Shown here in pieces: positions 3,596 to 55,415 of a DNA stretch of 64,000 nt; the stretch's first letter is position 1, and every line of letters starts with the position of its first letter. The stretch is taken from NCBI GenBank assembly GCA_965216945.1, contig CBDCGU010000003.1:3868-67867 (forward strand). The letters are read 5' to 3'. Origin of the DNA: Acidimicrobiia bacterium (GTDB taxonomy: Bacteria > Actinomycetota > Acidimicrobiia > Spongiisociales > UBA5794). The notes under the pieces were generated by a model, which was given only the letters and a program-made list of their open reading frames with translations, was not told the DNA's origin and searched no databases. The position numbers and the translations under genes were made by a program.

Positions 3596-3879
3596 CGCAC
3601 GCCCCCTGCCCGCGGGTCGGCGTCCGCACCTTTTCACCCTTGCCAGACGGCGATGTGCGGGTTACCTTCGACGTCGACGCGCTCATCCAGAGCGGTGGAG
3701 GGACGGGCCCTTCGAAGCCGCGGCAACCGGCGTTGCGACGCACGGTGCCAATGCCTGAGCGATGAGCTGCAGTGCGGGACACCCGCTTGCGGCGCTCCAA
3801 GAGCGCGTACGCGAGAAGGGGGTGGTCACGTACATGAACGGGCAGGGATTTCGGAGAATCTGCGTTCGTTGGTGGCGCC

Positions 3880-6800
3880 GTGGCTGACTACCGAGCCGCA
3901 ACACGGGACCGTGTCGTGATCTTCGACGGGGCCACGGGCACATCTCTTCAGGCGGTCGATCTCGGACCCGACGACTTCGGCGGGCCCGACTTCGAGGGTT
4001 GCAACGAGATCCTGAACCTCACGCGACCCGACGTCGTGGCCCGGCTGCATGCGGGGTTCCTCGACGTCGGTGTCGACGTGATCGAGACCAACACCTTCGG
4101 CGGTTTTGCGATTCCGCTCGACGAGTACGGCATCGCCGATCGGGCCTACGAGATCGCTCGTGCGGGTGCGGCGATCGCGGCCGGCGTCGCAGCCGACTAC
4201 GCGACCCCGGATCGGCCACGGTGGGTTGCGGGCTCGATCGGTCCCGGGACCAAGTTCCCGTCCCTGGGACAGATCACATACCGCGAGCTGCGCGACGCCT
4301 ACGAGATCGCGGCACGGGGGCTGCTGGATGGCGGGGTCGATCTCTTCATCATCGAGACCATGTTCGACCTGCTCGGGCTCAAAGCGGCGGTGGCCGCATG
4401 CCGGCGGGCCATGACAGCGACCGGGCGCGAGGTTCCGATCCAAGCCCAGGTGACGATCGAGCTCACCGGGCGCATGTTGCCGGGCACAGAGATCGGCGCC
4501 GCCCTCGCCGCCGTCGCCCCACTGGGGCCGGCGGTGATCGGCTTGAACTGCGCCACCGGGCCGGTCGAGATGTACGAGCCGCTGCGCCATCTGTCCCAGT
4601 CGGCTCCCATGCCGATCTCGGCCATACCGAACGCGGGCCTGCCGTCCGTCGTCGACGGGGCCATGCACTACGACCTGTCACCCGATGCCCTGGCCGAGCA
4701 CCACCGTCACTTCATCACCGACCTCGGCGTGAGCGTCGTGGGAGGTTGTTGCGGCACCACTGTGGAGCACCTTGCGGCTGTCGTGGATATGTGTCGGGAA
4801 CTGGAGCCGAAGCGCCGCAAACCCCTGCTGGAGCCCGGAGCCACTTCGATCTACAGCTTCACGCCGTTCCGCCAGGACACGTCGTTCCTCATCGTCGGCG
4901 AGCGCACCAACGCCAACGGCTCGAGGAAGTTCCGCGAGCTCATGCTGGCCGAGGACTGGGACGGGTGCGTGCAGATGGCCAAAGAGCAAGTGAAGGAGTC
5001 GGCCCACATGCTCGACCTCTGCGTCGACTACGTCGGCCGCGACGGTGTGCGCGACATGGACGCCCTGGCGTCTCGGCTGGCGACTCAGTCGTCGGTACCG
5101 ATCGTGCTCGACTCGACCGAGCCTGATGTGATGCAAGCCGGGTTGGAGTGGCTCGGCGGCCGCGGCGTCCTCAACTCGGCCAACCTGGAGGACGGCGATG
5201 CTGCCGGCTCACGCGCCGACCGGGTGTTCCGCCTGGCGAAGGAGCACGGCGCCGCCGTGATCTGCCTGCTCATCGACGAGGAGGGCCAGGCCCGCGATGC
5301 CGACTGGAAGCTGCGGATCGCCCACCGCCTCCACAACCTCGCGGTCGATCGCTACGGCCTGTCCCCCGGCGACCTGATCTTCGACGCACTCACATTCCCG
5401 CTCTCGACAGGTGACGATGATCTCCGGGGTGACGCCATGGCGACACTCGAAGCCGTGCGGCGCATCAAGACGGATCTCCCCGGCGTCTTCACCGTCTTGG
5501 GCGTCTCCAACGTGTCCTTCGGGCTCAAGCCGGCGGCGCGGCACGTGCTCAACTCCGTGTTTCTCCACGAGGCCGCGGCGACGGGGCTGGATGCAGCGAT
5601 CATCCATGCGGGTCGGATCGTGCCGCTCACCAAGATCCCCGACGAGCAGCGTGAGGTCTGCCTGGACCTGATCTACGACCGACGCAGTGGGGGGTACGAC
5701 CCACTGCAGCGACTACTCGAGGTGTTTGCGGACGTGACGGCCGCGGCGACGGTGGTCGAGGACCGCAGCGGCTGGTCGCTCGAGAAGCGGCTCTCCCGCC
5801 GCATCGTCGATGGTGACCGGGATGGTCTCGAGCCGGATCTGGACGAGGCGCTGTCGGCAGGGATGGCTCCGCTCGCCGTCATCAACGACATCCTGCTCGA
5901 CGGCATGAAGGTAGTCGGTGACCTCTTCGCCTCAGGGGAGATGCAGCTGCCGTTCGTGCTGCAGTCGGCCGAGACCATGAAGCAGGCGGTTGCGTACCTC
6001 GAACCACACATGGACCGCAGCGACACCAGCGGCAAGGGCACGATCGTGCTCGCCACGGTGAAGGGCGACGTGCACGACATCGGCAAGAACCTGGTCGACA
6101 TCATCCTCACCAACAACGGGTACGACGTGAAGAACCTCGGCATCAAGGTGGGAATCCAGGAGATGCTCGAGGCCTTCACCACCGAGGAGGCGGATGCGAT
6201 CGGGATGAGCGGACTGCTCGTGAAGAGCACACTCATCATGCGGGACAACCTCGAGGAGCTCAACCGGCGAGGCCTCGGAGCGGTCCCGGTACTCCTCGGC
6301 GGTGCCGCCCTCACCCGCACCTATGTAGAGAAGGACCTACGCGATGTCTACGCAGGCCCGCTCTTCTACGGAAAGGATGCGTTCACGGCGCTCCGGGTGA
6401 TGGAGCGACTCGACGAGATGCAACGCACGGGCGAGTCCGACCCGACGTTCGGCAGGGTGGCCGAGGGGCGCCGGCTACCCGACGTGCCGCGGCGGCAACA
6501 CAGCGCCGCGGCGCTCGTCCCGGCGCCGTCGCCGGACGTGGATTCCACCGCACCGGTGTTCACGCCGCCATCCCTGGGAAGCCGCATCGTCAAGGGCGTA
6601 CCCCTCGACGCCATCGCCGGCTACGTCAACGAAACCGCCTTGTTCCGCAACCAATGGCAATTCCGCCCGGAGAAGGGTGAGAAGGATGCCGAGTTCAAGG
6701 AGCGAGTGCGCACCGTGTTCCGCGAGCAGCTGGCGGCGGCCCGGGAGGATGATCTGCTCGTGCCACAGGTCGTCTACGGGTTCTTCCCCGTTGCCGCGGA

Positions 6801-7347
6801 TGGCAACGATCTCGTCGTGTTCACCGACGACTCCCGATCCACCGAGCGGATGCGCTTCACCTTCCCCCGGCAACGCCGGCCTCCCTGGCTCTGCATCGCC
6901 GACTTCCACAAACCGGTCGGTGCTGCCGAGGGCGACTATGCGGCGTTCCACATCGCAACGATGGGCCGCCGTGTATCGGAGCGCGCCGCCGAGTTGTTTG
7001 CGGCAGATCGCTACCGGGATTACTTGTTCCTCCACGGTCTCGGGGTGGAGATGACGGAGGCGCTGGCCGAGCTGTGGCACCGCCGCATCCGCGAAGAATG
7101 GGGATTCGCCGGCGAGGACGGTCCGACCATCCAGGGGTTGTTCCGCCAGCAGTACCGCGGCGGTCGATACTCGTGGGGGTATCCCGCGTGTCCCGATCTG
7201 GAGGACAACGTCAAGGTCGCCGAGCTGCTCGGCGCCGATCGCATCGGCGTCGATGTCGGTGAGCACACCGCGTTCCAGTACCAGCCGGAGCAAACGACGT
7301 CGGCCATCGTTTGCCACCATCCACAAGCCAAATACTTCATCACGTGA
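3880..7347 (+). CDS. metH: Cobalamin-dependent methionine synthase (5-methyltetrahydrofolate--homocysteine methyltransferase)
   Basis: 1155 aa. Shows the homocysteine-binding domain, pterin-binding domain, B12-binding region (GDVHDIGKNLV) and C-terminal AdoMet activation domain (VGAAEGDYAAFHIATMG...SWGYPACPDLED). Confidence 0.9.
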   Translation: MADYRAATRDRVVIFDGATGTSLQAVDLGPDDFGGPDFEGCNEILNLTRPDVVARLHAGFLDVGVDVIETNTFGGFAIPLDEYGIADRAYEIARAGAAIAAGVAADYATPDRPRWVAGSIGPGTKFPSLGQITYRELRDAYEIAARGLLDGGVDLFIIETMFDLLGLKAAVAACRRAMTATGREVPIQAQVTIELTGRMLPGTEIGAALAAVAPLGPAVIGLNCATGPVEMYEPLRHLSQSAPMPISAIPNAGLPSVVDGAMHYDLSPDALAEHHRHFITDLGVSVVGGCCGTTVEHLAAVVDMCRELEPKRRKPLLEPGATSIYSFTPFRQDTSFLIVGERTNANGSRKFRELMLAEDWDGCVQMAKEQVKESAHMLDLCVDYVGRDGVRDMDALASRLATQSSVPIVLDSTEPDVMQAGLEWLGGRGVLNSANLEDGDAAGSRADRVFRLAKEHGAAVICLLIDEEGQARDADWKLRIAHRLHNLAVDRYGLSPGDLIFDALTFPLSTGDDDLRGDAMATLEAVRRIKTDLPGVFTVLGVSNVSFGLKPAARHVLNSVFLHEAAATGLDAAIIHAGRIVPLTKIPDEQREVCLDLIYDRRSGGYDPLQRLLEVFADVTAAATVVEDRSGWSLEKRLSRRIVDGDRDGLEPDLDEALSAGMAPLAVINDILLDGMKVVGDLFASGEMQLPFVLQSAETMKQAVAYLEPHMDRSDTSGKGTIVLATVKGDVHDIGKNLVDIILTNNGYDVKNLGIKVGIQEMLEAFTTEEADAIGMSGLLVKSTLIMRDNLEELNRRGLGAVPVLLGGAALTRTYVEKDLRDVYAGPLFYGKDAFTALRVMERLDEMQRTGESDPTFGRVAEGRRLPDVPRRQHSAAALVPAPSPDVDSTAPVFTPPSLGSRIVKGVPLDAIAGYVNETALFRNQWQFRPEKGEKDAEFKERVRTVFREQLAAAREDDLLVPQVVYGFFPVAADGNDLVVFTDDSRSTERMRFTFPRQRRPPWLCIADFHKPVGAAEGDYAAFHIATMGRRVSERAAELFAADRYRDYLFLHGLGVEMTEALAELWHRRIREEWGFAGEDGPTIQGLFRQQYRGGRYSWGYPACPDLEDNVKVAELLGADRIGVDVGEHTAFQYQPEQTTSAIVCHHPQAKYFIT

Positions 7348-10224: not shown

Positions 10225-11670
10225 ATGCTCGAACGGGACCGGCTGGTCGCCGAGAGCGAGGTGCCATTGGAGCTGCGGGCCACCGATGAACGCCCGATAC
10301 TCGAGGGCGCCGTCCAGCAGGCCGCCCGGGATGCTCTGGCCGTTGCGGTGGACGATGACGACACGTTCGATGTTCGTCGCCAGGAGCTGCAGCGGGTCAT
10401 CGCATCACTGCGCCCCCACCGGGTAGCCGCCGCACGCCAGAGAGCTGCCACCGCACTCGCCAACCAGCTGGTGGAGACGGAGGTCGGGGACGCCCTCCTC
10501 ACCGACGAGGGCTCGCGGCTGGTGCGAGCCGCCGGCGCACTCGACCCCGGGGCCCCGGCACAACAATCCATCGACGAGCTCGCCGGGGTGTACGGCACCG
10601 CTCAGGCCAAGACCAGGAAGCTCGAATCGCTGTACGCCGCGCTCCCCGCATCGACGGCCCGCCCGGCGGTCGCCGCCGCTCTCGCCGACGTCACGGACGA
10701 CCCCGACATCGCCGTGGAGCGCTACGAGGAGGTGCGGGTGAAGCTGGAGGAGGAGGGAGCGGCCCTCAAGGCGGACGGGCTGTCGATCCCGGCCATCGCC
10801 GCGCTGCTCCTCATGAACAACGACCAGGACGACCTGGAGGAGTTCGTCGACACCTACCGGGAGAACCGCAATCGTGGCTTCCCGGCAGACGAGGCCGTGG
10901 AGTACGCCCTGGCCGGCCTGCGCACATCGCGCGAGATCGAGTACGTCCGCGAGGAGGCGAAACGGCTCGACCTGCCCATCGCCATCACGGCGGCCCTCTT
11001 GCGGCGCCGCGACGACGGTCCCGAGGTGTATCGCCAACTGCTCGACCGCCTCGCCGGGCAAGGCGTGGAGACCGACGATCGACGAACGATCGCCGGGATA
11101 CTGGCCGTGTCGCTCGAGCCTGCCCTCGCCATCGACCGATGGGTCGAAGCCCGCAACGCCCTGACCGCGTTGGGGCTCCAAGGAGCATACGCCGACATCG
11201 CCGCCGCCTTCGGGGCGTCCGACCCACGCGGTCCCCGGACCTTCGCTCTGGCCTACGCCGCCCAGCGCCAATCCCTGGCGCGCAGCACGATCGACGACGC
11301 CGACCGCTTCGCTCCCGAGCTCGCCCACGAGGGCACACGGCGCCAGGAGGACACGTGGACCGGCGAGCCCATACCTCGTGGTCTGTACAGCTTCGACCCG
11401 TACACGCTGCTCTTCTACCACTGGGTCATCACTCGCGGTCACCACGGCAGCTTCGGCTGGGAGCCCATCTACCGCGACCAGTCCTGGTCGCAGGACCGCG
11501 GTTCGTGGTGGGGCGGCACCGGCGGCTTCGGCGGCTGGGGCGGCGGTGGCGGCTTCGGGGGCGGCGGTGGTGGCTCGTCGTGGGGCGGCAGCTCGTGGGG
11601 CGGCGGTGGTTTTGGCGGGTTCGGTGGCGGAGGCGGGTTCGGTGGCGGAGGCGGCGGCAGCAGCTGGTAG
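10225..11670 (+). CDS. Hypothetical protein with a glycine-rich (GGFGG/SSWGG) C-terminal tail, partner of the TPM-domain gene
   Basis: Long ORF (frame of 9913..11670) with the first ATG after the upstream stop at 10225. CTG 10147 or GTG 10261 are also possible starts. Ends in WGGTGGFGGWGGGGGFGGGGGGSSWGGSSWGGGGFGGFGGGGGFGGGGGGSSW, the tail type known from TPM/YgcG-family proteins. Confidence 0.5.
   Translation: MLERDRLVAESEVPLELRATDERPILEGAVQQAARDALAVAVDDDDTFDVRRQELQRVIASLRPHRVAAARQRAATALANQLVETEVGDALLTDEGSRLVRAAGALDPGAPAQQSIDELAGVYGTAQAKTRKLESLYAALPASTARPAVAAALADVTDDPDIAVERYEEVRVKLEEEGAALKADGLSIPAIAALLLMNNDQDDLEEFVDTYRENRNRGFPADEAVEYALAGLRTSREIEYVREEAKRLDLPIAITAALLRRRDDGPEVYRQLLDRLAGQGVETDDRRTIAGILAVSLEPALAIDRWVEARNALTALGLQGAYADIAAAFGASDPRGPRTFALAYAAQRQSLARSTIDDADRFAPELAHEGTRRQEDTWTGEPIPRGLYSFDPYTLLFYHWVITRGHHGSFGWEPIYRDQSWSQDRGSWWGGTGGFGGWGGGGGFGGGGGGSSWGGSSWGGGGFGGFGGGGGFGGGGGGSSW
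11500..11667 (+). repeat. GGC-rich low-complexity coding repeat (Gly-rich tail)
   Basis: Degenerate (GGCGGYKKC) reiterations encoding the GGFGG/SSWGG tail. It is coding low complexity, not an interspaced array. Confidence 0.6.
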
Positions 11671-21145: not shown

Positions 21146-22194
21146 CCGTACCGCGCTACAAATGGCAGCCGACCACACCCGAGATCGCACGCAACGCCGG
21201 CATCGCCCCCTCCGCGGTCGTGCGTTTCGACCACAACACCTCGCCGTTCAGCACCGAATGGGCCGTGGACGTCGCCGTCGCTGCAGCCCGGTCCTTGAAC
21301 GAGTATCCCGGCGCCTCCTACCTTCCCATCCGGGAGGCGGCGGGGGCTCTCCACGGGCTTGCGCCGGAACAGGTGGCGGTTGGCGCAGGCGTCGATGAGC
21401 TGTTGCTGCTTGCCGGACGCACCTTCCTCGGGCCCGACAAGCGCAGCCTGGCGATCACGCCCTCCTACCCGCTGTACGAGATCGCATCACTGCAAGCAGG
21501 GGCCGGCTTCACCGAGGTCCCGGCGATCGGGCCCGAGCTGGTCCTTCCCGAGAATGCGCTCATCGAGGGGGCGCGCAACGCCGACGTGACGTGGCTCTGC
21601 GTCCCCGACAATCCCACCGGCAGCCGGATGGCGGACGACGTAGTCCGCGCCGTGATCGCCGCCACCGACGGGCTCGTGGTTCTCGACGCCGCATACGCCG
21701 AGTTCGCCGGAGACCACTGGTCGGAGTGGGTCGAGCGATACCACAACCTGCTCGTTCTCCACACGATGTCGAAGGGATTCGGCCTTGGTGGTCTCCGTGT
21801 GGGATACGGCCTCGGCCACCCCGACCTGGTCGATGCACTCGACGCCATGCGCCCGCCCGGGAGCATCGCAAGCTTGTCCGTCGAGATCGCCGTTGCCGCC
21901 CTGGCCGATCCGCAGCGCATGCGCAGCCAGGTCGCCGCCATCGTGGCGGAGCGTTCTGCTCTGGCGGCGAGGCTGAGCAACCTGGGCATTCATCCGCTGC
22001 CGTCGGACACCAACTTCATCCTGTGCGAAGTCGGCTCGCATGCCAGAGCGACGGCCGAGGCGCTGATGGGCGACGGCCTGGTGGTCCGGATGTATCCCGC
22101 AGACGGTCCCCTCGGTTCTCACCTACGCTTCACCGTCCGATCGCCCGATGAGAACGACCGCTTGATCGACGCCCTCAGGAGGAACCTGCCATGA
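21142..22194 (+). CDS. hisC: Histidinol-phosphate aminotransferase
   Basis: ATG 21142 overlaps the hisD stop (ATGA). Class-II aminotransferase with HTMSKGFGLGGLRVGY (PLP lysine). Confidence 0.85.
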   Translation: MTVPRYKWQPTTPEIARNAGIAPSAVVRFDHNTSPFSTEWAVDVAVAAARSLNEYPGASYLPIREAAGALHGLAPEQVAVGAGVDELLLLAGRTFLGPDKRSLAITPSYPLYEIASLQAGAGFTEVPAIGPELVLPENALIEGARNADVTWLCVPDNPTGSRMADDVVRAVIAATDGLVVLDAAYAEFAGDHWSEWVERYHNLLVLHTMSKGFGLGGLRVGYGLGHPDLVDALDAMRPPGSIASLSVEIAVAALADPQRMRSQVAAIVAERSALAARLSNLGIHPLPSDTNFILCEVGSHARATAEALMGDGLVVRMYPADGPLGSHLRFTVRSPDENDRLIDALRRNLP

Positions 22195-28779: not shown

Positions 28780-28871
28780 GCCACGACCGCGGACCCATCG
28801 TCCCCGACCGGATGTCCCTTCGCCGGTGCCGTCCGTCGGGATTCGAGCCCTTCGTCGATACACTGGACTCG

Positions 28872-29363
28872 GTGATCCGCCGCCGTCTCGCCGCCGTCGC
28901 GCTCGTTGCCCTCGCCGCCTCTGCTTGCTCGCCGAGCGACGTCGACATCGCCGCGGTCCCCGAACTGCCGGCCGTCAGATCCGAGGACGTCGCGACGCTC
29001 CTCGCCGCATCGACCCAGCCGGTCGTGCTGAACGTGTGGGCTTCCTGGTGCATCCCCTGCCGGTCGGAGGCCCCGCTGCTCGATCGAGCCTCGTCCCAGT
29101 TCTCTGACCGCATCCAGTTCCTCGGACTCAACGTACGCGACAGCCAGCCCGGGGCCCGCGAGTTCATCGCCGAGTTCTTGCCCGAGGCACCGTTCGATCA
29201 CCTCTTCGACTCCGCCGGCGACATCCCGGTCGATCTCGGTGGTTCCCGCGCCGTGCCGCTGACATTCTTCTACGCACCCGACGGTGCGCTCGTCGACCTG
29301 CACACGGGGGTGCTCGACGAGCGCACGCTGGCGCTTCAGATCGACGAGCTGCTGGCCCGGTAA
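28872..29363 (+). CDS. TlpA/ResA-like thiol:disulfide oxidoreductase lipoprotein (CxxC)
   Basis: GTG 28872 (VIRRRLAAVALVALAASACS, lipobox). Thioredoxin motif VVLNVWASWCIPCRSEAP. Confidence 0.6.
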   Translation: MIRRRLAAVALVALAASACSPSDVDIAAVPELPAVRSEDVATLLAASTQPVVLNVWASWCIPCRSEAPLLDRASSQFSDRIQFLGLNVRDSQPGAREFIAEFLPEAPFDHLFDSAGDIPVDLGGSRAVPLTFFYAPDGALVDLHTGVLDERTLALQIDELLAR

Positions 29364-30067
29364 TGGAGTTCACCCTGCTGGCTGCGGCGGCCATCGGCGT
29401 CGCGTCGCTCTATGTGATGCTGTGGTGGGAGGCGAAGCGAGGCAATGCCGCCGATTGCACCCGCGATCTGTGGGAGGTCGCCCTGGCCGCCATCATCGCC
29501 GGGGTGTTCGTCGGCAGGCTCGCCGCCATGATCATCGACGGGGTGAATCCGCTCGCCAATCCCGGCGACATCCTCATCGTGCGTGCCGGTGTGGCCACGG
29601 GTTGGGCCTCGGCGGCCGCCCTCCTCACCGTGGTGTGGCTGGCTCGTGATGAGCTGCGGCCCGTCGCCGACGGGCTGGCCGCGGCCGCCCTCGCCGGGTT
29701 GGCCGGCTGGCATGCCGGTTGTCTGCCGCGGGAGGCATGTCTCGGCACGCCGACGGATCTTCCCTGGGCGATGTCCCAACCGGGGTCGAGTGTCGGCCGC
29801 CACCCGGTCGAGCTCTACGCCGCCCTGGGGTTTGCGCTCGCCGCGATCGCACTTGCATGGTGGCGCAAGGTGAGCCCTCCCCCGGCGGGCGTCGCCGCCT
29901 TCGCGGCGCTGGCCGTCGCCGGTGGGGTGAGGCTGGTCACGGAGCCCATACGCCCGGCGCTGTCGCCGGGCCCGGTCTGGTGGTACGTCGCCGGCGTCGC
30001 CGTGGGTGTGGCCGGGCTCGGCTGGTCGTACCGCCAGGTGCGGCGTCGTCCCGGCGCACCCGGCTAG
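29363..30067 (+). CDS. Polytopic membrane protein, possibly prolipoprotein diacylglyceryl transferase (Lgt)-like
   Basis: 234 aa with 6-7 TM segments. GRHPVELYAALGFALAAIALAWW resembles the Lgt signature region. Start overlaps the upstream TlpA stop (TAATG). Confidence 0.4.
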   Translation: MEFTLLAAAAIGVASLYVMLWWEAKRGNAADCTRDLWEVALAAIIAGVFVGRLAAMIIDGVNPLANPGDILIVRAGVATGWASAAALLTVVWLARDELRPVADGLAAAALAGLAGWHAGCLPREACLGTPTDLPWAMSQPGSSVGRHPVELYAALGFALAAIALAWWRKVSPPPAGVAAFAALAVAGGVRLVTEPIRPALSPGPVWWYVAGVAVGVAGLGWSYRQVRRRPGAPG

Positions 30068-30225: not shown

Positions 30226-30867
30226 CTAGACCGAGAGTGCCAGCAGATTGTCGATCCGGGTGCGGATCTCGCTCTCGTCGAGAGCGCCGGGCCATCCGTC
30301 GACGATGGTGTCTCCGCCGGTGACGAGGAAGGTCACCGGCTGGTACGGCACGCCGTAGAGATCCCAGATGGAGTCGTCCAGACCCCACAACAGTGCGTCT
30401 CCGAACAGCTCGTCTGCCCGCTCTGCGGTCGAGCCGAGGTCGGACCGGCCCGCTACGGCGACGAATGCTACCTCGTCCTCATAGTCCTGGGAGATGTTGG
30501 CGACGACGGGCAACTCCCGCCGGCAGGTGGGTCACCACTCCGCCCAGAAGACGAGGTACACCGGCCTCTCCTCAGCACTCAGCGAGAACTCCCCGCCATC
30601 GGCGAGGGCCAGCGTGAAATCGGGAGCGGGGTCGCCTTCGGGCTCCGGTTGCGTCCCGCCCGCCGTCGTGGTCGGATCGTCGACATCCGCTGTTCCCCCG
30701 TCCCCGGCTACGGCGGCGGTGGTCGTGGTGTCACCGTCGTCGGTCTGGGCCTCCGCCGTGGCGGCGTCACCGCCGTGGGTCGTCGTGGCCCCGGAGTCGT
30801 CGCTACCGCCGCCGCAGGCCGCGGCGACGATCACAAGAGCGGCCAGAACGGCGATCCATCGCTTCAT
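30226..30867 (-). CDS. TlpA-like thioredoxin lipoprotein with TGA at the first active-site Cys position (putative selenoprotein, UxxC)
   Basis: ORFs 30532..30897 and 30226..30513 are in the same frame, separated only by TGA at 30532-30534. The joined translation reads ...ERPVYLVFWAEW-[TGA]-PTCRRELPVVANISQDYEDEVAFVAVAGRSD..., i.e. the W-C-P-x-C thioredoxin motif with U in place of the first C. Lipoprotein signal MKRWIAVLAALVIVAAACGG. Confidence 0.55.
30504..30522 (-). promoter_or_regulatory. Candidate bacterial SECIS hairpin for the TlpA-like UGA
   Basis: mRNA UGA CCCACCUGC CGGCGGG-AGUUG-CCCGUCG: a 7-bp stem starts 9 nt after the UGA, with a G/U-containing apical loop at about +17 to +21. Confidence 0.35.
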
Positions 30868-30929
30868 GGCGAGGACCTTAGACCGGACTATTCGCAAGCG
30901 AATCCCATTCGGCGCTGTTCACGGAATGT

Positions 30930-31976
30930 TCACCGATCGCGGGAGAAGGCCACCGCCCGCTCGAGGACTGCAAGTGCATCACCCGAGTCGAGCGCCTGGA
31001 TCGCGAGCTCCATGCCTTCGGTGAACCCGTCGGCCAGCCCGGCCGCAACGATGGCGGGGGCAGCGTTGACGAGAGCGATATCCCGCTTGGGACCGGCGTC
31101 ACCATGAAGCACCCCCCTCGTGATGGCGAGGTTCTCCTGGACATCCCCGCCGAGGAGGTCTTCACGGCGGGAGCGCCCGATGCCGAAGTCCTCCGGGGTG
31201 AACTCGGCGTGGGTGATCTCATCGTCGATGAGCCGGTAGATGAATGACGGACCCGTCGTCGTCAGCTCGTCGAGCCCGTCCTCACCGTGGAACACGAATG
31301 CGACCTCGGCGCCCGTGTTGCGCAGCACCTCGATCATCTTCCCTGCAAGTGCGTGGTCTGCCACGCCAACCGCATAACGGCGAGCCCGTGCCGGATTGCA
31401 CAGCGGCCCGAGGACATTGAAGACCGTGCGGATCCCGATCTCGCGCCGCACCGGCCCGGCGTGTCGCATGGCAGGGTGGTACCGCGGCGCAAAGAAGAAG
31501 CCGAACCCGATGGTGCGGATCATCTCGACGGTGGCGTCCGGTGGCAGGTCGATGTCGATACCCAAAGCCTCCAGCAGGTCTGCCGAGCCCGTTTTCGATG
31601 AGGCAGCCCGGTTGCCGTGTTTGGCGACCTTGGCGCCCGCACCGGCAGCGATGAAGGCGGCCGTGGTCGAGATGTTGAAGGTGCCGGAATGGTCGCCGCC
31701 CGTGCCCACGATGTCGACGACACGTTCCCCGACGTCCACCGTCACCGCAGCATCGAGCATTGCCTCGACCATGCCGGTGATCTCGTCGCTCGTCTCGCCT
31801 TTGGCTCGCAACCCCGTGACGAACGCGGCGATCTGCGCCGGCGATGCATCACCGGCCATGACCTGCTGCATCGCCGCCCGAGCCGTCTCCCTGCTCAGCG
31901 CCTCCCCCGCCACCAGAGGCGAGAGCACAACGGCCCAATCGAACGATGCGTCGCCGCCGACATCTCTCTCGGTCAC
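30930..31976 (-). CDS. trpD: Anthranilate phosphoribosyltransferase
   Basis: GTG 31976 (VTERDVG...). TrpD motifs are DIVGTGGDHSGTFNISTTAAFIAAGAGAKVAKHGNRAASSKTGSADLLEALG and NPARARRYAVGV. Confidence 0.8.
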   Translation of the reverse strand: MTERDVGGDASFDWAVVLSPLVAGEALSRETARAAMQQVMAGDASPAQIAAFVTGLRAKGETSDEITGMVEAMLDAAVTVDVGERVVDIVGTGGDHSGTFNISTTAAFIAAGAGAKVAKHGNRAASSKTGSADLLEALGIDIDLPPDATVEMIRTIGFGFFFAPRYHPAMRHAGPVRREIGIRTVFNVLGPLCNPARARRYAVGVADHALAGKMIEVLRNTGAEVAFVFHGEDGLDELTTTGPSFIYRLIDDEITHAEFTPEDFGIGRSRREDLLGGDVQENLAITRGVLHGDAGPKRDIALVNAAPAIVAAGLADGFTEGMELAIQALDSGDALAVLERAVAFSRDR

Positions 31977-32047
31977 GCCGGCAGCGTAGCCACCAATCGG
32001 GCTCGTGCCCCCGTGGCGACTTTCGAGCGAGCTGCGAGCGATACGGC

Positions 32048-32362
32048 TCAGGCGGTGCGGCGGAGTGCGAGGCGACGTTGCTTCTCGGTGCGGCCACCCC
32101 AGACGCCAAACGTCTCGCGAGCGTCCATCGAGTACGACTGGCACTCCCGCATCACGGGGCACATGGCACAGAGAGCGAGCGCAGCCTTCTCATCGGCCTT
32201 GCTGCCGGGGAAAAACAGGTCGGGGTCGGCATCACGGCATGCGGCGAAGACCACCCAGGGGCGTTCGTCGGTGATGGGGGCTTGCAGGAAGGCGGCAAGG
32301 GCCGCCAACTCGTCGGTCAGGGTGTCACTCATGCGGGCGCACTCCTCCTCAAGGGCGCTCAT
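32048..32362 (-). CDS. WhiB-family (Wbl) Fe-S transcription factor
   Basis: Four Cys in C...C..C.....C spacing (FAACRDADPDLFFP...ALALCAMCPVMRECQ) and the C-terminal GVWGGRTEKQRR motif. Confidence 0.7.
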   Translation of the reverse strand: MSALEEECARMSDTLTDELAALAAFLQAPITDERPWVVFAACRDADPDLFFPGSKADEKAALALCAMCPVMRECQSYSMDARETFGVWGGRTEKQRRLALRRTA

Positions 32363-33298: not shown

Positions 33299-34162
33299 TC
33301 AGAGCTCGGCCAGATACTCCTGACGCCACCGCTCCGTGCTCTCGACCTGGTTGAACGTGTAGACGTGGACGCCGGCAATGTTCGCCACCGGATCGACGAG
33401 CGTGCCGGCCATGTCCTCGAGCAGCTCGTCGGGGCTGTAGCCGCCCGGCTCGACGAAGGAGCGCAGCAGCCCGCGGTGACGGCTCAGGAACCGCATTGAG
33501 CGTCCGACGCCGATCCGAGCGGAGATCCGCATGAGCTTGAGACGGTCGGCAACTCCCGGAACGCCGATCACCGCCGGCAGGCGGATGCCGCTGGTGCGCA
33601 TGTCACGCAGCCACGTAGTGATCGCCTCCGCGTCGAAACACATCTGGGTCGTCATCGACGTGGCGAAGGGTTGTTTGTCGTGTAGCGCCAGCCGGGCCGT
33701 TTCGTCGTCGAAGATGTGGTGCCCCTCCGGGTAGGACCCGATGCCGATCTCATCGAACTCTGCGCCGAGCTCGGCGATTGCCCGCAGCAGCGAGCCGGCG
33801 TCGAAGAACTCGCCGGCCTCTGCGGCGTCCCCGCCGATGACGAAGATACGCCGGATCTCGAGGTCGTCGATCCGGGCGAGGAGCTTCTCCAGATGCGTCC
33901 GATCGTGGATCATCCGTGCCGACAGGTGCGGGATCACGTCGAAGCCACGGCGCCGCAGCACGGCGGCGAGCTCGATCGTGTCTTCTAGTGGCTTCACCGG
34001 TGACGCCGTCACGGAGACCGCTGCGGCCGGGGGCAGATACGCCACCTGATCGAGCACGTTCTTCAGCGGTATCACCTCGAAGATCGCGTTCTCCAGCACG
34101 CGGCGGATCGCCGCCCGCTGCGCTTCGTTGAGTTCACGTTCCATGGGCGGGGGGCTCCTCAT
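33299..34162 (-). CDS. Methylenetetrahydrofolate reductase-like protein (second MetF paralog, short form)
   Basis: 287 aa MetF-family protein (EVIPLKN...ISARMIHDRTHLEKLLARIDDLEIRRIFVIGGDAAE...). Start abuts the mttB-family stop, making it the last gene of the corrinoid methyltransferase operon. Confidence 0.7.
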   Translation of the reverse strand: MRSPPPMERELNEAQRAAIRRVLENAIFEVIPLKNVLDQVAYLPPAAAVSVTASPVKPLEDTIELAAVLRRRGFDVIPHLSARMIHDRTHLEKLLARIDDLEIRRIFVIGGDAAEAGEFFDAGSLLRAIAELGAEFDEIGIGSYPEGHHIFDDETARLALHDKQPFATSMTTQMCFDAEAITTWLRDMRTSGIRLPAVIGVPGVADRLKLMRISARIGVGRSMRFLSRHRGLLRSFVEPGGYSPDELLEDMAGTLVDPVANIAGVHVYTFNQVESTERWRQEYLAEL

Positions 34163-35697
34163 GTGTCAGAGTCGGGGAACGAGCTCTTGCGACGGTCGAT
34201 CCAATCGACGAGCTCGGCGTCGATCGCCTCATCGAGCGCCGGCGGCTCGTAGTCGGCGAGCATCTGCTTCCACTTGGCGTTGGCGCGCTGGACGGCGTCC
34301 CGACTCCCTTCGAGCTCCCATTGCTCGAAGCTGTTGTTGTCGGCGAGATCGGACCGCCAGAAGGCGGTTTCGAAGTTGGCCAGCGTGTGCTCGGTTCCGA
34401 GGAAGTGCTGCCCGGGCCCCGTCGCGATCATCGCATCGAGGGCAAGGGCGTTGTCGTCCACGGCGACGCCCGCAACCCACCGCTCCATCATCGTCGCTTG
34501 GATGGAGTCGATGATGAACTTCTCGTAGCCGACGGTGAGGCCGCCTTCGAGCCATCCAGCGGAGTGGAGCACGAAGTTCACCCCGGCCTGGACGGTGGGG
34601 AGAAAGGTGAGGGCGCTCTCGTAGGCGGCTTGGGCGTCGGCAACCTTCGACGCAGTGAAGTTCCCGCCGGAGCGGAACGGCACACCCAGCCGTCGCGCCA
34701 GCTGGGCCACGAGATAGAGCATCAGCGCAGGCTCAGGGGTGCCGAAGGTCGGGGCGCCCGATTGCATCGACATGGAGCTGGCGAAAGATCCGAAGATCAC
34801 AGGCGCTCCAGGACGGACGATCTGCGTGAACGCCATGCCTGCCATGGCCTCGGCGAGAGTCTGGGTCGCTGCCCCCGCCACGGTCGACGGCGCCATCGCC
34901 CCCGCCAGGATGAACGGAGTCACCAGCACGGCCTGATTGTTCTCGGCATACACCTTGGCAGAGCCGAGCATGGCGTGGTCCCAGGACATCGGGGAGTTGG
35001 CGTTCGCAAGGGCCAGCACGAACGTTCGCTCCTGCAACGCGTCGTCGCCGAACAGCACCTTGACGATGTCGATCGTGTCCTGGGCACGGTCGGGGTGTGT
35101 CACCGACCCCATGAAGGGTTTGTCGCTGTACTTGATGTGGGTGTACACCATGTCGAGATGACGCTTGTTGACCGGCAGGTCGACCGGCTCACAGAGAGTG
35201 CCGCCCGCATGATGGAGCGCAGGCGACATATACGTCAGCTTGGCGAGGTTGCGGAAGTCCTCGATGGTGGCGTAGCGGCGGCCGCCTTCCAGATCGCGCA
35301 CGAAAGGGGGCCCGTAGACGGGTGCGAACACCAGATGCGGGTCGCCGATGACGACTGAGCGCTCGGGGTTGCGTGCGTGCTGGGTGAACTTCTTCGGCGC
35401 TGTGGCTTGGATGAGCTGCCGGCACATCCCGCGGGGAAAGCGCACACGAGTCCCGTCGACATCGGCCCCGGCCGCGGCGAAGATCCGCACCGCCTCCTCG
35501 TAGCCGACGATGTCGATTCCCACCTGCTCCAGCAGGGTCTCGGCGTTCTCCTCGATGAGGCCGAGAGCTTCGGCCGACAGCACTTCGACCGGAGCCAGGT
35601 TGCGGGTGAGGAACTTCTGCTGCTCGATGGCCTTCGACACCCGCGCCGCCTGGCGTGCCGAGCGACCCCCGCCGCGCCGTCCCCGTCGTTCGCTCAT
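34159..35697 (-). CDS. MttB-superfamily (non-pyrrolysine) quaternary-amine:corrinoid methyltransferase, glycine-betaine (MtgB) type
   Basis: 512 aa trimethylamine methyltransferase (MttB) family over the full length with no in-frame amber codon. The genomic context (corrinoid protein, RACo, MtrH-like, DMGDH) points to a glycine betaine/quaternary amine substrate. Start ATG overlaps the RACo stop (ATGA). Confidence 0.8.
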   Translation of the reverse strand: MSERRGRRGGGRSARQAARVSKAIEQQKFLTRNLAPVEVLSAEALGLIEENAETLLEQVGIDIVGYEEAVRIFAAAGADVDGTRVRFPRGMCRQLIQATAPKKFTQHARNPERSVVIGDPHLVFAPVYGPPFVRDLEGGRRYATIEDFRNLAKLTYMSPALHHAGGTLCEPVDLPVNKRHLDMVYTHIKYSDKPFMGSVTHPDRAQDTIDIVKVLFGDDALQERTFVLALANANSPMSWDHAMLGSAKVYAENNQAVLVTPFILAGAMAPSTVAGAATQTLAEAMAGMAFTQIVRPGAPVIFGSFASSMSMQSGAPTFGTPEPALMLYLVAQLARRLGVPFRSGGNFTASKVADAQAAYESALTFLPTVQAGVNFVLHSAGWLEGGLTVGYEKFIIDSIQATMMERWVAGVAVDDNALALDAMIATGPGQHFLGTEHTLANFETAFWRSDLADNNSFEQWELEGSRDAVQRANAKWKQMLADYEPPALDEAIDAELVDWIDRRKSSFPDSDT

Positions 35698-51424: not shown

Positions 51425-53317
51425 CTAGGCCACCGTTTCGATGCGCACTGCGGTGGCTTTGAACTCTGCGGTACCCGACTTCGGGTCCCACACGTCGATC
51501 GTGAGCTCGTTGACGTCGGCTTCGTCGGGGAAGTGGAAGGCCATGAACGCAAGCCCGGGGCGAAGCGACTCGTGGAACCATACGGGTACGTCGATGCTGC
51601 CTCGCCGCGATGTCACTCGGACGATGTCCCCTTCGGTCACGCCGAGGGTCGCTCCGTCCTCGGGTGCGACCTCGATGATGCCACCGTGGCGAATCGGCGA
51701 TCGGTAGCGGCCGGACTGAACGCCGGTGTTGTACGAGTCGAGCCGGCGGCCGGTCGTGAGGCGGATGGGGAAGTCGTCGCTCAGCTCATCGACCGGAGGC
51801 ACCCACTCGGTCGGTATGAACGGTGCGGGATCTCGTGGCATCGGATCTTCCCACAGCCACCCATGGAGGTACTGGGTTCCGGGATGACTCTCGTCGGGAC
51901 ATGGCCATTGCAGCCCGCCCAGCTCTTCGAGGCGGCGGTACGACATCCCGCCGTGCATCGGTGACAGGCTGCGACATTCGTCCCACACCTCCTCGGCCGT
52001 CGGGATGCCCCAGCCGACCCCGAGCCGTTCTGCGAGCAGGCTGATGATCTCGAGGTCGTCCTTGGCATCTCCCGGCGGGTCGAGTGCCTTGCGAACGCGC
52101 TGCACCCGTCGCTCGGACGACGTCACGGTTCCCTCGCTCTCCGCCCAGCCGGCGGCAGCAGGGAGGACCACGTCGGCCATCTCGGCGGTCTTGGTGAGGA
52201 ACATGTCCTGCACGATGATGAAGTCGAGGCCGTCGAGGATCTTGCGGATGTGCCCTACGTCGGCCTCCGACTGTGCCGGGTTCTCGCCGATGCAATACAG
52301 CGCGTTGATCTCGCCGCGCTCCATGGCTTCGAACATGAGCGAGATGTGGAGCCCGTTCCGCGGCGGGATGGGATGCCCCCAGAGAGCCTCGAACTTGCCG
52401 CGGATCTCGGCATCTTCGACGTTCTGGAACCCGGGGAGCTTGTTGGGGAGCGCCCCCATGTCCCCGCCGCCTTGCACGTTGTTCTGGCCGCGGATCGGAA
52501 CGAGCCCTGATCCGTAACGTCCGACGTGTCCTGTGAGCATCGCCAGGTTGATGAGCGCCAGGACGTTGTCGGTGGCGTTGTGATGCTCGGTGATCCCCAG
52601 CGTCCAGCAGATCTGTGCGGAGCCTGCGGTCGCGTAGGCATGGGCCATCTCCTTGATGGCCGCAGCCGGCACACCGGTGACCTGCTCGGCCCGGTGCAAC
52701 GTCCACTCGTCGACCGTCGTGCGATACGCCTCGTAGCCAGAGGTGGAGTGCGCGATGAACTCCTCGTTCTGCAGCCCGGCGTCGATGATCTCCCGACCGA
52801 CGGCATTGGCCAGGGCGATGTCCGACCCGACATCCAGCCCGAGCCACATCTCGGCCCAGGCCGACGAGGTCGTGCGCCGAGGATCGACCGCAAACAACCT
52901 CGCACCGTTACGCACACCCTTGAGAAGGTGGTGAAAGAAGATCGGGTGCGCTTCGCGCGCGTTGGATCCCCACAGCAAGATGACGTCTGTGGTCTCGATC
53001 TCCTCGTAGGAGGAGGTGCCTCCTCCTGCTCCCAGCACTGCCGCCAGACCGGCGACGGAGGGAGCGTGTCAGGTGCGGTTGCACGAGTCGATGTTGTTCG
53101 AGCCCATGGCAATCCGGGAGAACTTCTGTGCGAGGAAGTTCATCTCGTTCGTCGCCTTCGAGCACGAGAACATTCCGTAGGACTGGCCGTCGTGCCGCCG
53201 CAATCCCGTCGCTGCGGCATCGAGCGCCTCGTCCCACGACGCGGCCACCAGGTCACCCTTCCGCCGCACCAGCGGGGTGGTCAACCGTCCACGCTGCATT
53301 CCGTCACCTCCTTCCAC
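51425..53317 (-). CDS. fdhA: Formate dehydrogenase catalytic (molybdopterin) subunit, selenocysteine-containing (TGA at 53069-53071 read as Sec)
   Basis: ORFs 53069..53317 and 51425..53038 share one frame and are separated by a single TGA. The joined translation ...FSRIAMGSNNIDSCNRT-U-HAPSVAGLAAVLGAGGGTSSYEEIETTDVILLWGSNAREAHPIFFHH aligns with E. coli FdhF ...GTNNVDCCARV-U-HGPSVAGLHQSVGNGAMSNAINEIDNTDLVFVFGYNPADSHPIVANH. The downstream sequence is a full MopB formate-dehydrogenase domain (VRGQNNVQGGGDMGALPNKLPGFQ...). The N-terminal Fe4S4 domain is absent from this gene. Confidence 0.8.
53040..53056 (-). promoter_or_regulatory. SECIS-like hairpin downstream of the fdhA UGA (GUCGCC-GGUCU-GGCGGC)
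   Basis: mRNA UGA CACGCUCCCUCC GUCGCC GGUCU GGCGGC: a 6-bp stem begins 12 nt after the UGA. The apical loop GGUCU is identical to the GGUC(U) loop of the E. coli fdhF SECIS. Confidence 0.5.
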
Positions 53318-53449: not shown

Positions 53450-55246
53450 TCAGAACAATCCGACGACGTTGCCGTCCTCGTCGATATCGACATTCATGTA
53501 CGCAGGCTTCGTGCCGAGACCCGGCATGGTTCGCATCTCGCCGAGCAGCGGGTAGATGAAGCCGGCACCGACAGATGCGCGCACCTCCCGCACCGGCACC
53601 GTGAAGCCAGAAGGTGCGCCCTTCAGCGCCGGATCGTGAGAGATCGACAGATGGGTCTTCGCCATGCAGATCGGCAGATACCCGAATCCGGACCGCTCGA
53701 ACTCGGCGATCTGCCGCTCGGCGACCGGGGCGTATTCCACCTCGGCGGCTCCATAGATCTGCGTCGCGATCGCCTCGATCTTCTCCTTGATCGACCTGTC
53801 GAGCGGGTAGAGGAATCCGAACTTGGATGGCTCCTCGCACGCCTGCTCGACGGCAGCAGCGAGCTCCAACGCACCTTTGCCGCCCTCGGCCCAGTGGTTC
53901 GATCGCACGGCGGAGGAGGCGCCCGCATCCATCGCCGCCTCTTGGATGAGCTCCATCTCGCGCCGGGTGTCTGTCGGGAACTGGTTCACCGCAACCACCA
54001 CGGGCACGCCAAATCGACGGGCGTTGGCGACATGTGCCTTCAGATTGGAGAGCCCGGCGCGGAGCAGAGCGAGATTCTCCTCCGTGTAGGCCTTGTCGAG
54101 CGGTCTACCCGGCACGACCTTGGGACCGCCGCCGTGCGTCTTCAGGGCCCGCACCGTCGCCACCAAGACCACGCAGTCCGGCTTGAGGCCGGAGACCCGG
54201 CACTTGATGTCGAAGAACTTCTCCATACCCATGTCGGCACCGAAGCCGGATTCGGTCACGACGTAGTCCCCGATGTGGAGCGCCACCCTGTCGGCGAGGA
54301 TCGAGGAGTTGCCGTGGGCGATATTGGCGAACGGACCCGCATGGACGAAAGCGAGCTGCCCCTCGAGCGTCTGCATGATCGTCGGGTGGAGCGTCTCCTT
54401 CATCAGGACGGCGACTGCTCCGGCGACACCGACGTCCTCGAGTGTCACCGGCTCGTTGCTCTTCGAGGTGCCGATGACGACCCGCCCACAACGTTCGCGG
54501 AAGTTGCGCAGCGCCGAGGCATAGTCGGACCCGTCGACGAGGGCCAAGATCGCCATCAGCTCCGAAGCCACGGTGATGTCGTAACCGGTCTCACGCGGTC
54601 GCCCGTCCGCCGAGCCGCCGAGCCCGATGATCGTGTTACGGAGTGCCCGGTCGTTGACATCGACGACACGACGCCACGAGATCCTGTTGGGATCGAGGGA
54701 GATCCGTTCGAGCCCGAGTGCGGCGAGCCGGTCGTCGGTGAGCCTTCCCTCGTGGTACCAGCGGGCATCGATCGCGGCCGCAACGAGGTTGTGGGCCACC
54801 GAGATGGCATGCATGTCGCCCGTGAGATGGAGGTTGAACTCGTCCATGGGGATCACCTGGGAGTAGCCGCCACCGGCGGCACCACCCTTGATCCCGAACG
54901 TCGGGCCCATCGACGGCTGGCGGATGGCGGCGATCGCCTTGTGCCCGCGCCGCCCGAGCCCCTGGACGAGACCGATCGTCGTCGTGGTCTTGCCCTCGCC
55001 GAGTGGCGTGGGAGTGATCGCCGTGACGTCGACGTACTTGCCGTGCGGGTTGGCGCCGATTCTCTTGAGAGCGTCGAGGTGGACCTTGGCCTTTGTCGTG
55101 CCGAAGGCGATCAGGTCGTCGTCCTCGAGACCATGCCGACGGGCGACGTCGAAGATCGGCTCGACGGTCGCCTGCTGTGCGATCTCGAGATCGCTGGGAA
55201 CCCCGCTCATGGTTTCTCCGCGGTTGGTGAATCGGGCCGGGAGCAC
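53450..55246 (-). CDS. fhs: Formate--tetrahydrofolate ligase
   Basis: 598 aa FTHFS over the full length (TPTPLGEGKTTTTIGL...AVNQFPTDT...). Its stop is 130 nt upstream of the fdhA start. Confidence 0.9.
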   Translation of the reverse strand: MLPARFTNRGETMSGVPSDLEIAQQATVEPIFDVARRHGLEDDDLIAFGTTKAKVHLDALKRIGANPHGKYVDVTAITPTPLGEGKTTTTIGLVQGLGRRGHKAIAAIRQPSMGPTFGIKGGAAGGGYSQVIPMDEFNLHLTGDMHAISVAHNLVAAAIDARWYHEGRLTDDRLAALGLERISLDPNRISWRRVVDVNDRALRNTIIGLGGSADGRPRETGYDITVASELMAILALVDGSDYASALRNFRERCGRVVIGTSKSNEPVTLEDVGVAGAVAVLMKETLHPTIMQTLEGQLAFVHAGPFANIAHGNSSILADRVALHIGDYVVTESGFGADMGMEKFFDIKCRVSGLKPDCVVLVATVRALKTHGGGPKVVPGRPLDKAYTEENLALLRAGLSNLKAHVANARRFGVPVVVAVNQFPTDTRREMELIQEAAMDAGASSAVRSNHWAEGGKGALELAAAVEQACEEPSKFGFLYPLDRSIKEKIEAIATQIYGAAEVEYAPVAERQIAEFERSGFGYLPICMAKTHLSISHDPALKGAPSGFTVPVREVRASVGAGFIYPLLGEMRTMPGLGTKPAYMNVDIDEDGNVVGLF

Positions 55247-55266
55247 CCTAGCGCACAGTGTGCTGC

Positions 55267-55294
55267 GATACGGGACGGTCCCGCATCGTGGTAC
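55267..55294. promoter_or_regulatory. Conserved 28-nt cis-element GATACGGGACGGTCCCGCATCGTGGTAC (copy 2) upstream of fhs, divergent from the MFS gene
   Basis: 24/28 identity with 40399-40426. Contains the palindromes CGGGAC-G-GTCCCG and GTCCCGC-ATC-GTGGTAC. Confidence 0.5.
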
Positions 55295-55415
55295 GAACCG
55301 TCAGACCGAGATGGCCGAGAAGGTGTGGACACAGGGTCACCTGCGGCGATAGTCTCCCGGGCCCATCGCAACGACGTGGGACGGGCTCGAGATCCGGCGG
55401 ACCCGAGAGAGCGCG

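Follow-up and report, generated by a model that had tools for sequence, protein, structure and literature searches.

Selenoproteins in which selenocysteine (Sec) stands in the first position of a UxxC motif have been described as peroxiredoxin (Prx)-like, thiol-disulfide isomerase-like, and TlpA-like proteins (cd02966, PF00578, PF08534), recovered from genome sequences as well as from the metagenomes of the Sargasso Sea and of Global Ocean Sampling (GOS), where they rank with the more abundant families of selenoproteins (PMC1088965, PMC1794560, PMC2398784, and a table in PMC13188914). Frequent exchange of Sec and Cys is a known pattern (PMC1794560), and the bacterial selenocysteine insertion sequence (SECIS) is a small stem-loop located right after the UGA and carrying a G in its small apical loop (PMC1088965). 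Here we analyzed a 64,000-nucleotide stretch of an Acidimicrobiia bacterium genome (GCA_965216945.1, contig CBDCGU010000003.1, positions 3,868 to 67,867; the window hereafter), whose minus strand carries a gene for a thioredoxin-like lipoprotein with an in-frame TGA in the active site. The gene very probably encodes an exported, lipid-anchored thiol-disulfide oxidoreductase of the TlpA/DsbE/ResA type with Sec as the attacking residue (W-U-P-T-C), its UGA being recoded by means of a SECIS. That it belongs to the selenoproteins of the SelB/SECIS-dependent kind is almost certain, judging from the pairing of in-frame UGA with Cys among homologs, the selection acting on the downstream part, the use of UGA only, and the downstream stem-loop.

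The minus strand from 30897 to 30226 forms a single reading frame whose sole internal stop is the TGA at 30532 to 30534, and the protein across the junction reads VFWAEW-*-PTCRRELPV; in both respects the initial annotation of this stretch was reproduced. It had let the gene begin at 30897, whereas the likely start is ATG 30867 (MKRW..., opening a signal peptide with a lipobox) rather than TTG 30897. The complete coding sequence then spans 30226 to 30867 on the minus strand (213 residues plus a TAG stop, with Sec at residue 112), an extent based on the domain matches that span the junction and on homologs that are full-length with Cys or TGA at the same codon. From this ATG, the N terminus reads MKRWIAVLAALVIVAAAC-GGGS and is followed by a linker rich in Thr, Ala, and Gly and then by the catalytic domain. 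The putative signal peptide with its lipobox, MKRWIAVLAALVIVAAA-C18, occupies 30814 to 30867; Cys18, the predicted lipidation site, is conserved in at least 90% of the homologs aligned, and a pattern for lipoproteins of Gram-positive bacteria matched the window protein and 73 of the 90 family members, the misses being nearly all 5'-truncated gene calls. The lipoprotein signal thus appears to be a trait of the family. The low-complexity linker (30640 to 30813), in which Asp is also frequent, varies in length and composition across the homologs, and the catalytic domain, of the thioredoxin fold and of TlpA/DsbE/ResA type, covers 30229 to 30639 (residues 77 to 213). Within that domain, the UGA codon at 30532 to 30534, presumably read as selenocysteine U112, stands where W-C-x-x-C has its N-terminal nucleophilic Cys and aligns to the invariant Cys of the Cys forms, and the UGC codon at 30523 to 30525 specifies Cys115, the resolving Cys of the UxxC motif, which does not vary in any Sec or Cys form. 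W111, U112, and C115 are all present, and the pair Q176-P177, at the position of the cis-Pro loop, is invariant; P177 presumably adopts the cis conformation. The C-terminal 95-residue piece (30226 to 30513, minus strand) is filed as a separate predicted protein for the same genome, so that the gene is mis-annotated in the gene calls of that collection.

With the stop replaced by Cys, the protein matched the Pfam families Redoxin (49.7 bits; cutoff, 26.6), AhpC-TSA (45.3 bits; cutoff, 26), and Thioredoxin (31.2 bits; cutoff, 23.5), and all three matches extended over the TGA junction. The best sequence matches in the PDB were Mycobacterium tuberculosis DsbF (3ios, E = 2e-13) and DsbE/MPT53 (1lu4, E = 5e-13), followed by Bacillus subtilis ResA. 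The alignments with DsbF and DsbE covered about 125 residues, spanning the active site and the conserved Q-P loop, and the W-C-x-x-C and Q-P positions lined up with those of DsbF, DsbE, and ResA. These matches agree with the initial call of a TlpA-like thioredoxin lipoprotein. None of the NCBIfam ortholog models came near its cutoff (ResA, 47.2 versus 170; DsbE, 27.7 versus 123; TlpA, 25.8 versus 230; StoA, 31.3 versus 210), and the protein was therefore filed only under the TlpA-like/Redoxin superfamily. Nor was there a match to NCBIfam NF041054, the ResA-like WAxxUGC selenoprotein (23.6 bits versus a cutoff of 300), the motif here being U-P-T-C and not U-G-C.

The evidence that the TGA is read through came from the relatives of the gene. 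A protein search returned about 62 full-length homologs with VFWAEWCxxC and about 35 open reading frames (ORFs) of 117 to 150 residues, all of which ended exactly at ...VFWAEW; for the three short ORFs that were looked up exactly, a second ORF of about 95 residues began 18 nucleotides later, as it does in the window. We then scanned metagenome contigs with the pattern GTN-TTY-TGG-GCN-GAR-TGG-TRR, which permits TGA, TAA, TAG, or TGG after the conserved Trp. An earlier scan of genome contigs had used a Cys-containing pattern and hence yielded Cys forms only, so the Sec forms derive from the metagenome scan and the exact look-ups. Over all fetched loci, the tally was 114 TGA, 2 TAA, 2 TAG, and 8 TGG, and it also takes in 23 TGC/TGT sites from the genome scan. 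About 100 of the 114 TGA sites proved to be true homologs, with xxC after the TGA and about 95 conserved in-frame codons up to a common stop, and about 80 other homologs carried TGC or TGT at the same codon. No true homolog had TAA, TAG, or TGG at the Sec codon, all such hits of the TRR scan being unrelated sequence; this is how the comparison of orthologs for TGA versus TGC, suggested with the initial annotation, came out. The TGA-bearing contigs are independent and only 40 to 70% identical. The variation at codon positions 1, 2, and 3 was 0.39, 0.27, and 0.61 downstream of the UGA and 0.31, 0.33, and 0.58 upstream of it, and the third-position variation together with the approximately 95 conserved codons places the downstream frame under protein-level (purifying) selection.

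These data bear directly on the alternative that the gene is a degraded pseudogene, or that the TGA is a sequencing error, with translation stopping at that point. In line with such a reading, gene callers split the gene, its 95-residue C-terminal piece is filed on its own for this genome, and the ORFs of about 35 database entries stop at the same place. A decayed or misread gene is hard to reconcile, however, with the roughly 100 independent contigs that have TGA at this very codon and an intact, conserved frame after it, with variation that falls mostly on third positions, as in translated sequence, or with the fact that TAA and TAG are never used among the homologs. Moreover, the window has the full codon signature of the Sec-form hairpin, which its closest Cys relative (L001) lacks (67 versus 22 bits with R1, a covariance model that was built from the Sec forms and matches its own training sequences by construction). 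The pseudogene, which the initial annotation had set against its own proposal, can hardly be credited and is effectively refuted by the comparative data.

The hairpin in question lies at 30504 to 30522 on the minus strand (5' arm CGGCGGG, 30522 to 30516; loop AGUUG, 30515 to 30511; 3' arm CCCGUCG, 30510 to 30504). Its conserved core is the inner 6 base pairs (bp; 30521 to 30505), a seventh, outer pair being formed in about half of the homologs; the 7-bp hairpin begins 9 nucleotides after the UGA and the 6-bp core 10 nucleotides after it. We aligned 94 distinct Sec-form sequences without gaps and numbered the columns from the U of the UGA as position 1, so that the stem comprises positions 14 to 19 and 25 to 30 and the loop positions 20 to 24, starting 17 nucleotides after the UGA in the window. 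All six core pairs were present in 86 of the 94 Sec forms, whereas the 17 Cys forms taken from Acidimicrobiia genomes had four pairs at most. Compensatory changes were found at three stem pairs. Pair 14-30 was G-C in 70 sequences (69 once identical rows were collapsed), A-U in 15, G-U in 4, and C-G in 3; pair 17-27 was A-U instead of G-C in five sequences, in which Arg was also replaced by Gln (CAG...CCU); and pair 15-29 alternated between A-U and G-U. For the named structure 91.4% of the cells were paired, as against 37 to 69% when the partners were slid by one to three columns, and both sides had changed in 30 cells, a number reached by none of 500 shuffles. The same 6-bp hairpin was predicted independently by RNAalifold. 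Across the family the hairpin is near-invariant, reading CGGGAGUUGCCCG, with a loop of AGUUG or AGUUA in 85 of the 94 Sec forms and a shifted solution, CCGGGAGCUCCCGG, in three sequences.

The imprint of the hairpin is equally visible in the codons that it covers. Arg was encoded by CGG in all 89 Arg codons of the Sec forms and in two of the four of the Cys forms, in which the position is mostly Lys; Leu was UUG or UUA in 85 of 94 Sec forms versus 1 of 19 Cys forms, and Pro was CCC or CCU in 91 of 94 versus 6 of 19. Codon choice in the hairpin thus appears bent to the RNA structure, and across the family the hairpin behaves as would be expected of a bacterial SECIS. In an Acidimicrobiaceae Cys-form ortholog (L004:2017-2076, plus strand), the sequence is still CGTCGGGAGTTGCCGGTTG, with a score of 59 bits under the Sec-form model, as if a recent switch from Sec to Cys had left a fossil SECIS behind.

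The same alignment bears on a further alternative, namely, that there are two genes here, one for a short N-terminal lipoprotein and one for a C-terminal protein started at TTG 30513. This TTG is a possible start codon and is used by ORF finders, but it is also the Leu codon of the hairpin loop, and in 20 of the 94 homologs it is replaced by UUA, CUC, CUU, CUG, or AUC, none of them a start. Neither half alone constitutes a thioredoxin fold, the domain and PDB alignments cross the junction, and the C-terminal piece lacks a signal peptide and has a single active-site Cys, all of which makes a pair of separate genes exceedingly improbable. A single selenoprotein gene, which the initial annotation had proposed as a UxxC candidate with Sec for the first Cys of CxxC, is supported by the Sec/Cys alternation, the conserved downstream frame, and the covarying hairpin; of the checks suggested with it, all those that were run favored it.

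A second in-frame TGA (53069 to 53071, minus strand) is found in the window in a gene for an FdhA-type molybdopterin oxidoreductase (coding sequence at about 51425 to 53299; Molybdopterin domain, E = 5e-67). It stands in the motif SCNRT-U-HAPSV, which is the Sec/Cys-His context of formate dehydrogenases, and is followed by a strong hairpin of its own (GUCGCC-GGUCU-GGCGGC, z = -2.0); the fdhA Sec gene named in the initial annotation was thereby recovered. The GGUCU loop resembles that of the Escherichia coli fdhF SECIS. The gene comes directly after that for formate-tetrahydrofolate ligase (53450 to 55300, minus strand). The molybdopterin domain seems to be where the FdhA-type ORF starts, an N-terminal Fe4S4 domain being absent and a stop codon lying just upstream. 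With two independent recoding sites in 64 kb, an active Sec system is likely. Since TGA serves as an ordinary stop in the window more often than either of the other stop codons, the genetic code is not reassigned. Further in-frame TGA candidates with a Cys after the stop, at 10405 to 10407 and 21487 to 21489 (minus strand), turned out on translation to be antisense shadow frames of plus-strand genes, and seven more were set aside by eye, untranslated, as gene ends or shadow frames.

Recoding of the UGA need not deliver Sec: Cys could be inserted through a selC-like tRNA(Cys) and SelB, or the codon could be passed by near-cognate read-through. A selC-like tRNA(Cys) that works with SelB has been reported in some bacteria, and the comparative data, which show recoding and a SelB-type hairpin, would fit more than one inserted amino acid. 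The FdhA-type gene, with its classic U-H context and its own hairpin, points instead to an ordinary Sec system, and Cys inserted by recoding would offer no advantage over the TGC or TGT of the many relatives that use these codons. We consider insertion of a residue other than Sec to be quite unlikely.

Building on the single frame, the Sec/Cys alternation, the purifying selection downstream, the covariation of the hairpin, and the family assignment, we infer Sec insertion, lipidation, the redox direction, and the substrates as follows. During translation, UGA 30532 to 30534 would be recoded as Sec, the stem of 6 to 7 bp with its 5-nucleotide AGUUG loop, 10 nucleotides downstream, acting as the SECIS that recruits SelB with Sec-tRNA(Sec); because this hairpin is written into the R-R-E-L-P-V codons, codon choice there would be fixed by the RNA structure. 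Export and lipidation at Cys18 would place the domain on the outer face of the membrane, where U112 and C115 would exchange selenenylsulfide and disulfide bonds with substrate proteins. By alignment, Sec sits at the position of the solvent-exposed attacking Cys, with Cys115 as the resolving residue. In thioredoxin-fold proteins, Sec in place of Cys is faster both as a nucleophile and as a leaving group, and the redox potential is lowered; because of these general properties of the selenol we favor a role as reductase or isomerase at the outer face of the membrane.

Several observations pull the other way. No tRNA-Sec was found by ARAGORN in the 64-kb window or in the 894 kb of fetched loci (there is no tRNA at all in the window), and no selA, selB, or selD was found in the window (Pfam, about 30 window ORFs) or in the fetched loci; we therefore infer the Sec competence of the genome only from the FdhA site. 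The stability of the hairpin in the single sequence is ordinary (z = 0.40, with 126 of 200 shuffles folding at least as well, in a sequence of 68% G+C), and since single-sequence folding was not significant, we relied on the comparative analysis. Of the SECIS-like hairpin claimed initially, then, the sequence, the position, the conservation with covariation in the family, and the absence from Cys forms hold, and the single-sequence stability does not. No Rfam family covers the hairpin, the Rfam hits in 30400 to 30650 being noise (E > 1), and the hairpin overlaps the conserved peptide R-E-L-P, so part of the sequence conservation is protein constraint. As to the direction of the reaction, M. 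tuberculosis DsbE and DsbF are described as oxidases.

Sec and Cys have replaced each other repeatedly in this family. In a neighbor-joining tree of 81 Sec and 83 Cys distinct domain sequences, the two forms interleaved, with at least 15 state changes, and some Cys forms were about 90% similar to Sec forms. The conserved upstream neighbor, trpD (anthranilate phosphoribosyltransferase; 30930 to 32162, minus strand; Glycos_transf_3 domain), adjoined the family gene in 51 loci, of Sec and Cys forms alike and with named Acidimicrobiia genomes included. The common position downstream of trpD and the switches in the tree therefore indicate one orthologous locus that has changed its state repeatedly within Acidimicrobiia. 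From the trpD synteny and the tree, the unnamed metagenome contigs were provisionally assigned to Acidimicrobiia. One metagenome contig (L153, plus strand) carries three tandem Sec-form paralogs, at about 6530, 7347, and 8393, each with its own TGA and hairpin.

Convergent to the selenoprotein gene lie two further conserved genes. The first (28812 to 29363, plus strand, start codon uncertain) encodes a DsbE-like CxxC paralog that reads WASWCIPCRSE and stops at 29363; the second (29363 to 30067, plus strand) encodes an LGT-family membrane protein of 234 residues (PF01790, E = 5e-16), and its start overlaps the DsbE-like stop, by which the two genes would be translationally coupled. The pair recurs, convergent to the family gene, in at least 24 other loci. 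In tblastn searches, matches to the DsbE-like gene were obtained in 35 loci, those of about 70% identity being adjacent genes (e.g., in L059 and L086) and those of about 30% the TlpA-like gene itself, and the gene was present as a separate ORF in 14 loci. Both genes had been noticed in the initial annotation, and both are there; the Sec/Cys paralog pair that it suggested did not hold, the DsbE-like protein being only 34% identical to the Sec protein. It is a distant, separately conserved paralog that did not arise as a Sec/Cys duplicate in recent times; the true Sec/Cys pairs are orthologs in other Acidimicrobiia. The LGT-family gene stood beside the Sec or Cys family gene in 24 loci, and in 22 of these its product kept a C-x5-C motif (GC..R..CLGT), the two without the Cys pair coming from one Sec locus (L073) and one Cys locus (L006). 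Besides trpD, the recurrent upstream neighbors were WhiB and an AIG2-like gene, and an alpha/beta hydrolase gene occurred as an alternative to the DsbE-like/LGT pair. Genes from which a substrate might be guessed (ccdA/dsbD, msr, peroxiredoxin, or cytochrome c maturation genes) were not found in the neighborhood analysis of the family loci. On a related contig, L036, ccmH is accompanied by a separate Redoxin gene.

The LGT-family protein may possibly be a redox partner of the selenoprotein. A bolder proposal is that the Sec lipoprotein, the DsbE-like protein, and the LGT-like C-x5-C protein make up an undescribed selenol-based extracytoplasmic redox relay of Acidimicrobiia, in which the Cys-bearing LGT-like protein would take over the transmembrane electron transfer from CcdA/DsbD or VKOR. 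We regard such a relay as unlikely.

Elsewhere, the window carries an S-adenosylmethionine (SAM) riboswitch (3680 to 3768, plus strand; 74.7 bits) upstream of a gene for a five-domain cobalamin-dependent methionine synthase (3838 to 7344). Many of the window genes are of the one-carbon, corrinoid, or methyl-transfer type, among them two for MTHFR and those for RACo, a B12-binding protein, a DUF1638 protein, a dimethylglycine-oxidase-like protein, S-methyltransferases, FTHFS, and an archaeal-type AdoMet (S-adenosylmethionine) synthetase. The Rfam model PYLIS_3 (the mttB pyrrolysine insertion sequence) matched at 34560 to 34659 (minus strand) just above its gathering threshold (38.9 versus 38), within the ORF at 34159 to 35697 (minus strand). 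As a pyrrolysine signal this match was rejected: the MttB-family ORF has no in-frame TAG, and we therefore take it for a non-pyrrolysine member of that family and the match for coding-sequence homology.

The understanding of selenoproteins itself is unchanged by this gene; its interest lies first in annotation, since callers that stop at the UGA have split or truncated the gene in at least 35 database entries as well as in this genome. The approximately 100 independent examples of a very compact, near-fixed SECIS over the R-E-L-P codons could serve as a clean training set for predictors of bacterial selenoproteins, and they offer a clean case of RNA structure and protein sequence constraining the same bases. 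They would also mean that, in Acidimicrobiia, FdhA and SelD are commonly joined by at least one further selenoprotein, and, given the repeated Sec/Cys switching, the gene could mark selenium use in environmental samples. Within the collection of papers searched, Acidimicrobiia selenoproteins were discussed only in a 2026 Actinomarina preprint, in which the family of the window gene is not described.

Set beside known systems, the hairpin resembles the SECIS of E. coli fdhF in lying inside the coding sequence soon after the UGA and in having G-U in the apical loop, but its stem is shorter (6 to 7 bp), it has no bulged U, and its loop is AGUUG instead of GGUCU. Among characterized proteins, DsbF (Rv1677, 3ios) and DsbE/MPT53 (1lu4) are actinobacterial extracytoplasmic proteins with a conserved QP loop and a motif that in DsbF reads FWAPWCPTC...APVV. 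Unlike the window protein, they have Cys and not Sec; identity to them is only about a third, the redox direction may differ, and orthology is not established. The reductases ResA, CcmG(DsbE), and TlpA, which act in cytochrome c and CuA maturation, share the fold family and the W-C-x-x-C motif, ResA being the top NCBIfam match, but the scores are far below the cutoffs, and no cytochrome c maturation genes or ccdA adjoin the window gene. The nearest likeness is to the published UxxC Prx-like and TlpA-like selenoproteins, which have Redoxin/AhpC-TSA domains, Sec as the first residue of UxxC, abundant Cys homologs, and a SECIS with a small G-containing loop after the UGA. Compared by their descriptions, the clade of the window gene is set apart from these by the Thr-rich linker of a predicted lipoprotein of Acidimicrobiia, by the motif VFWAEW-U-xxC-RRELPV, by the near-invariant hairpin CGGGAGUUGCCCG, and by conserved trpD synteny, although it may equal a published subfamily. 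UxxC redox selenoproteins have been known since about 2005, and the window gene represents a previously unannotated, well-supported clade of this known kind, with a compact, near-fixed SECIS.

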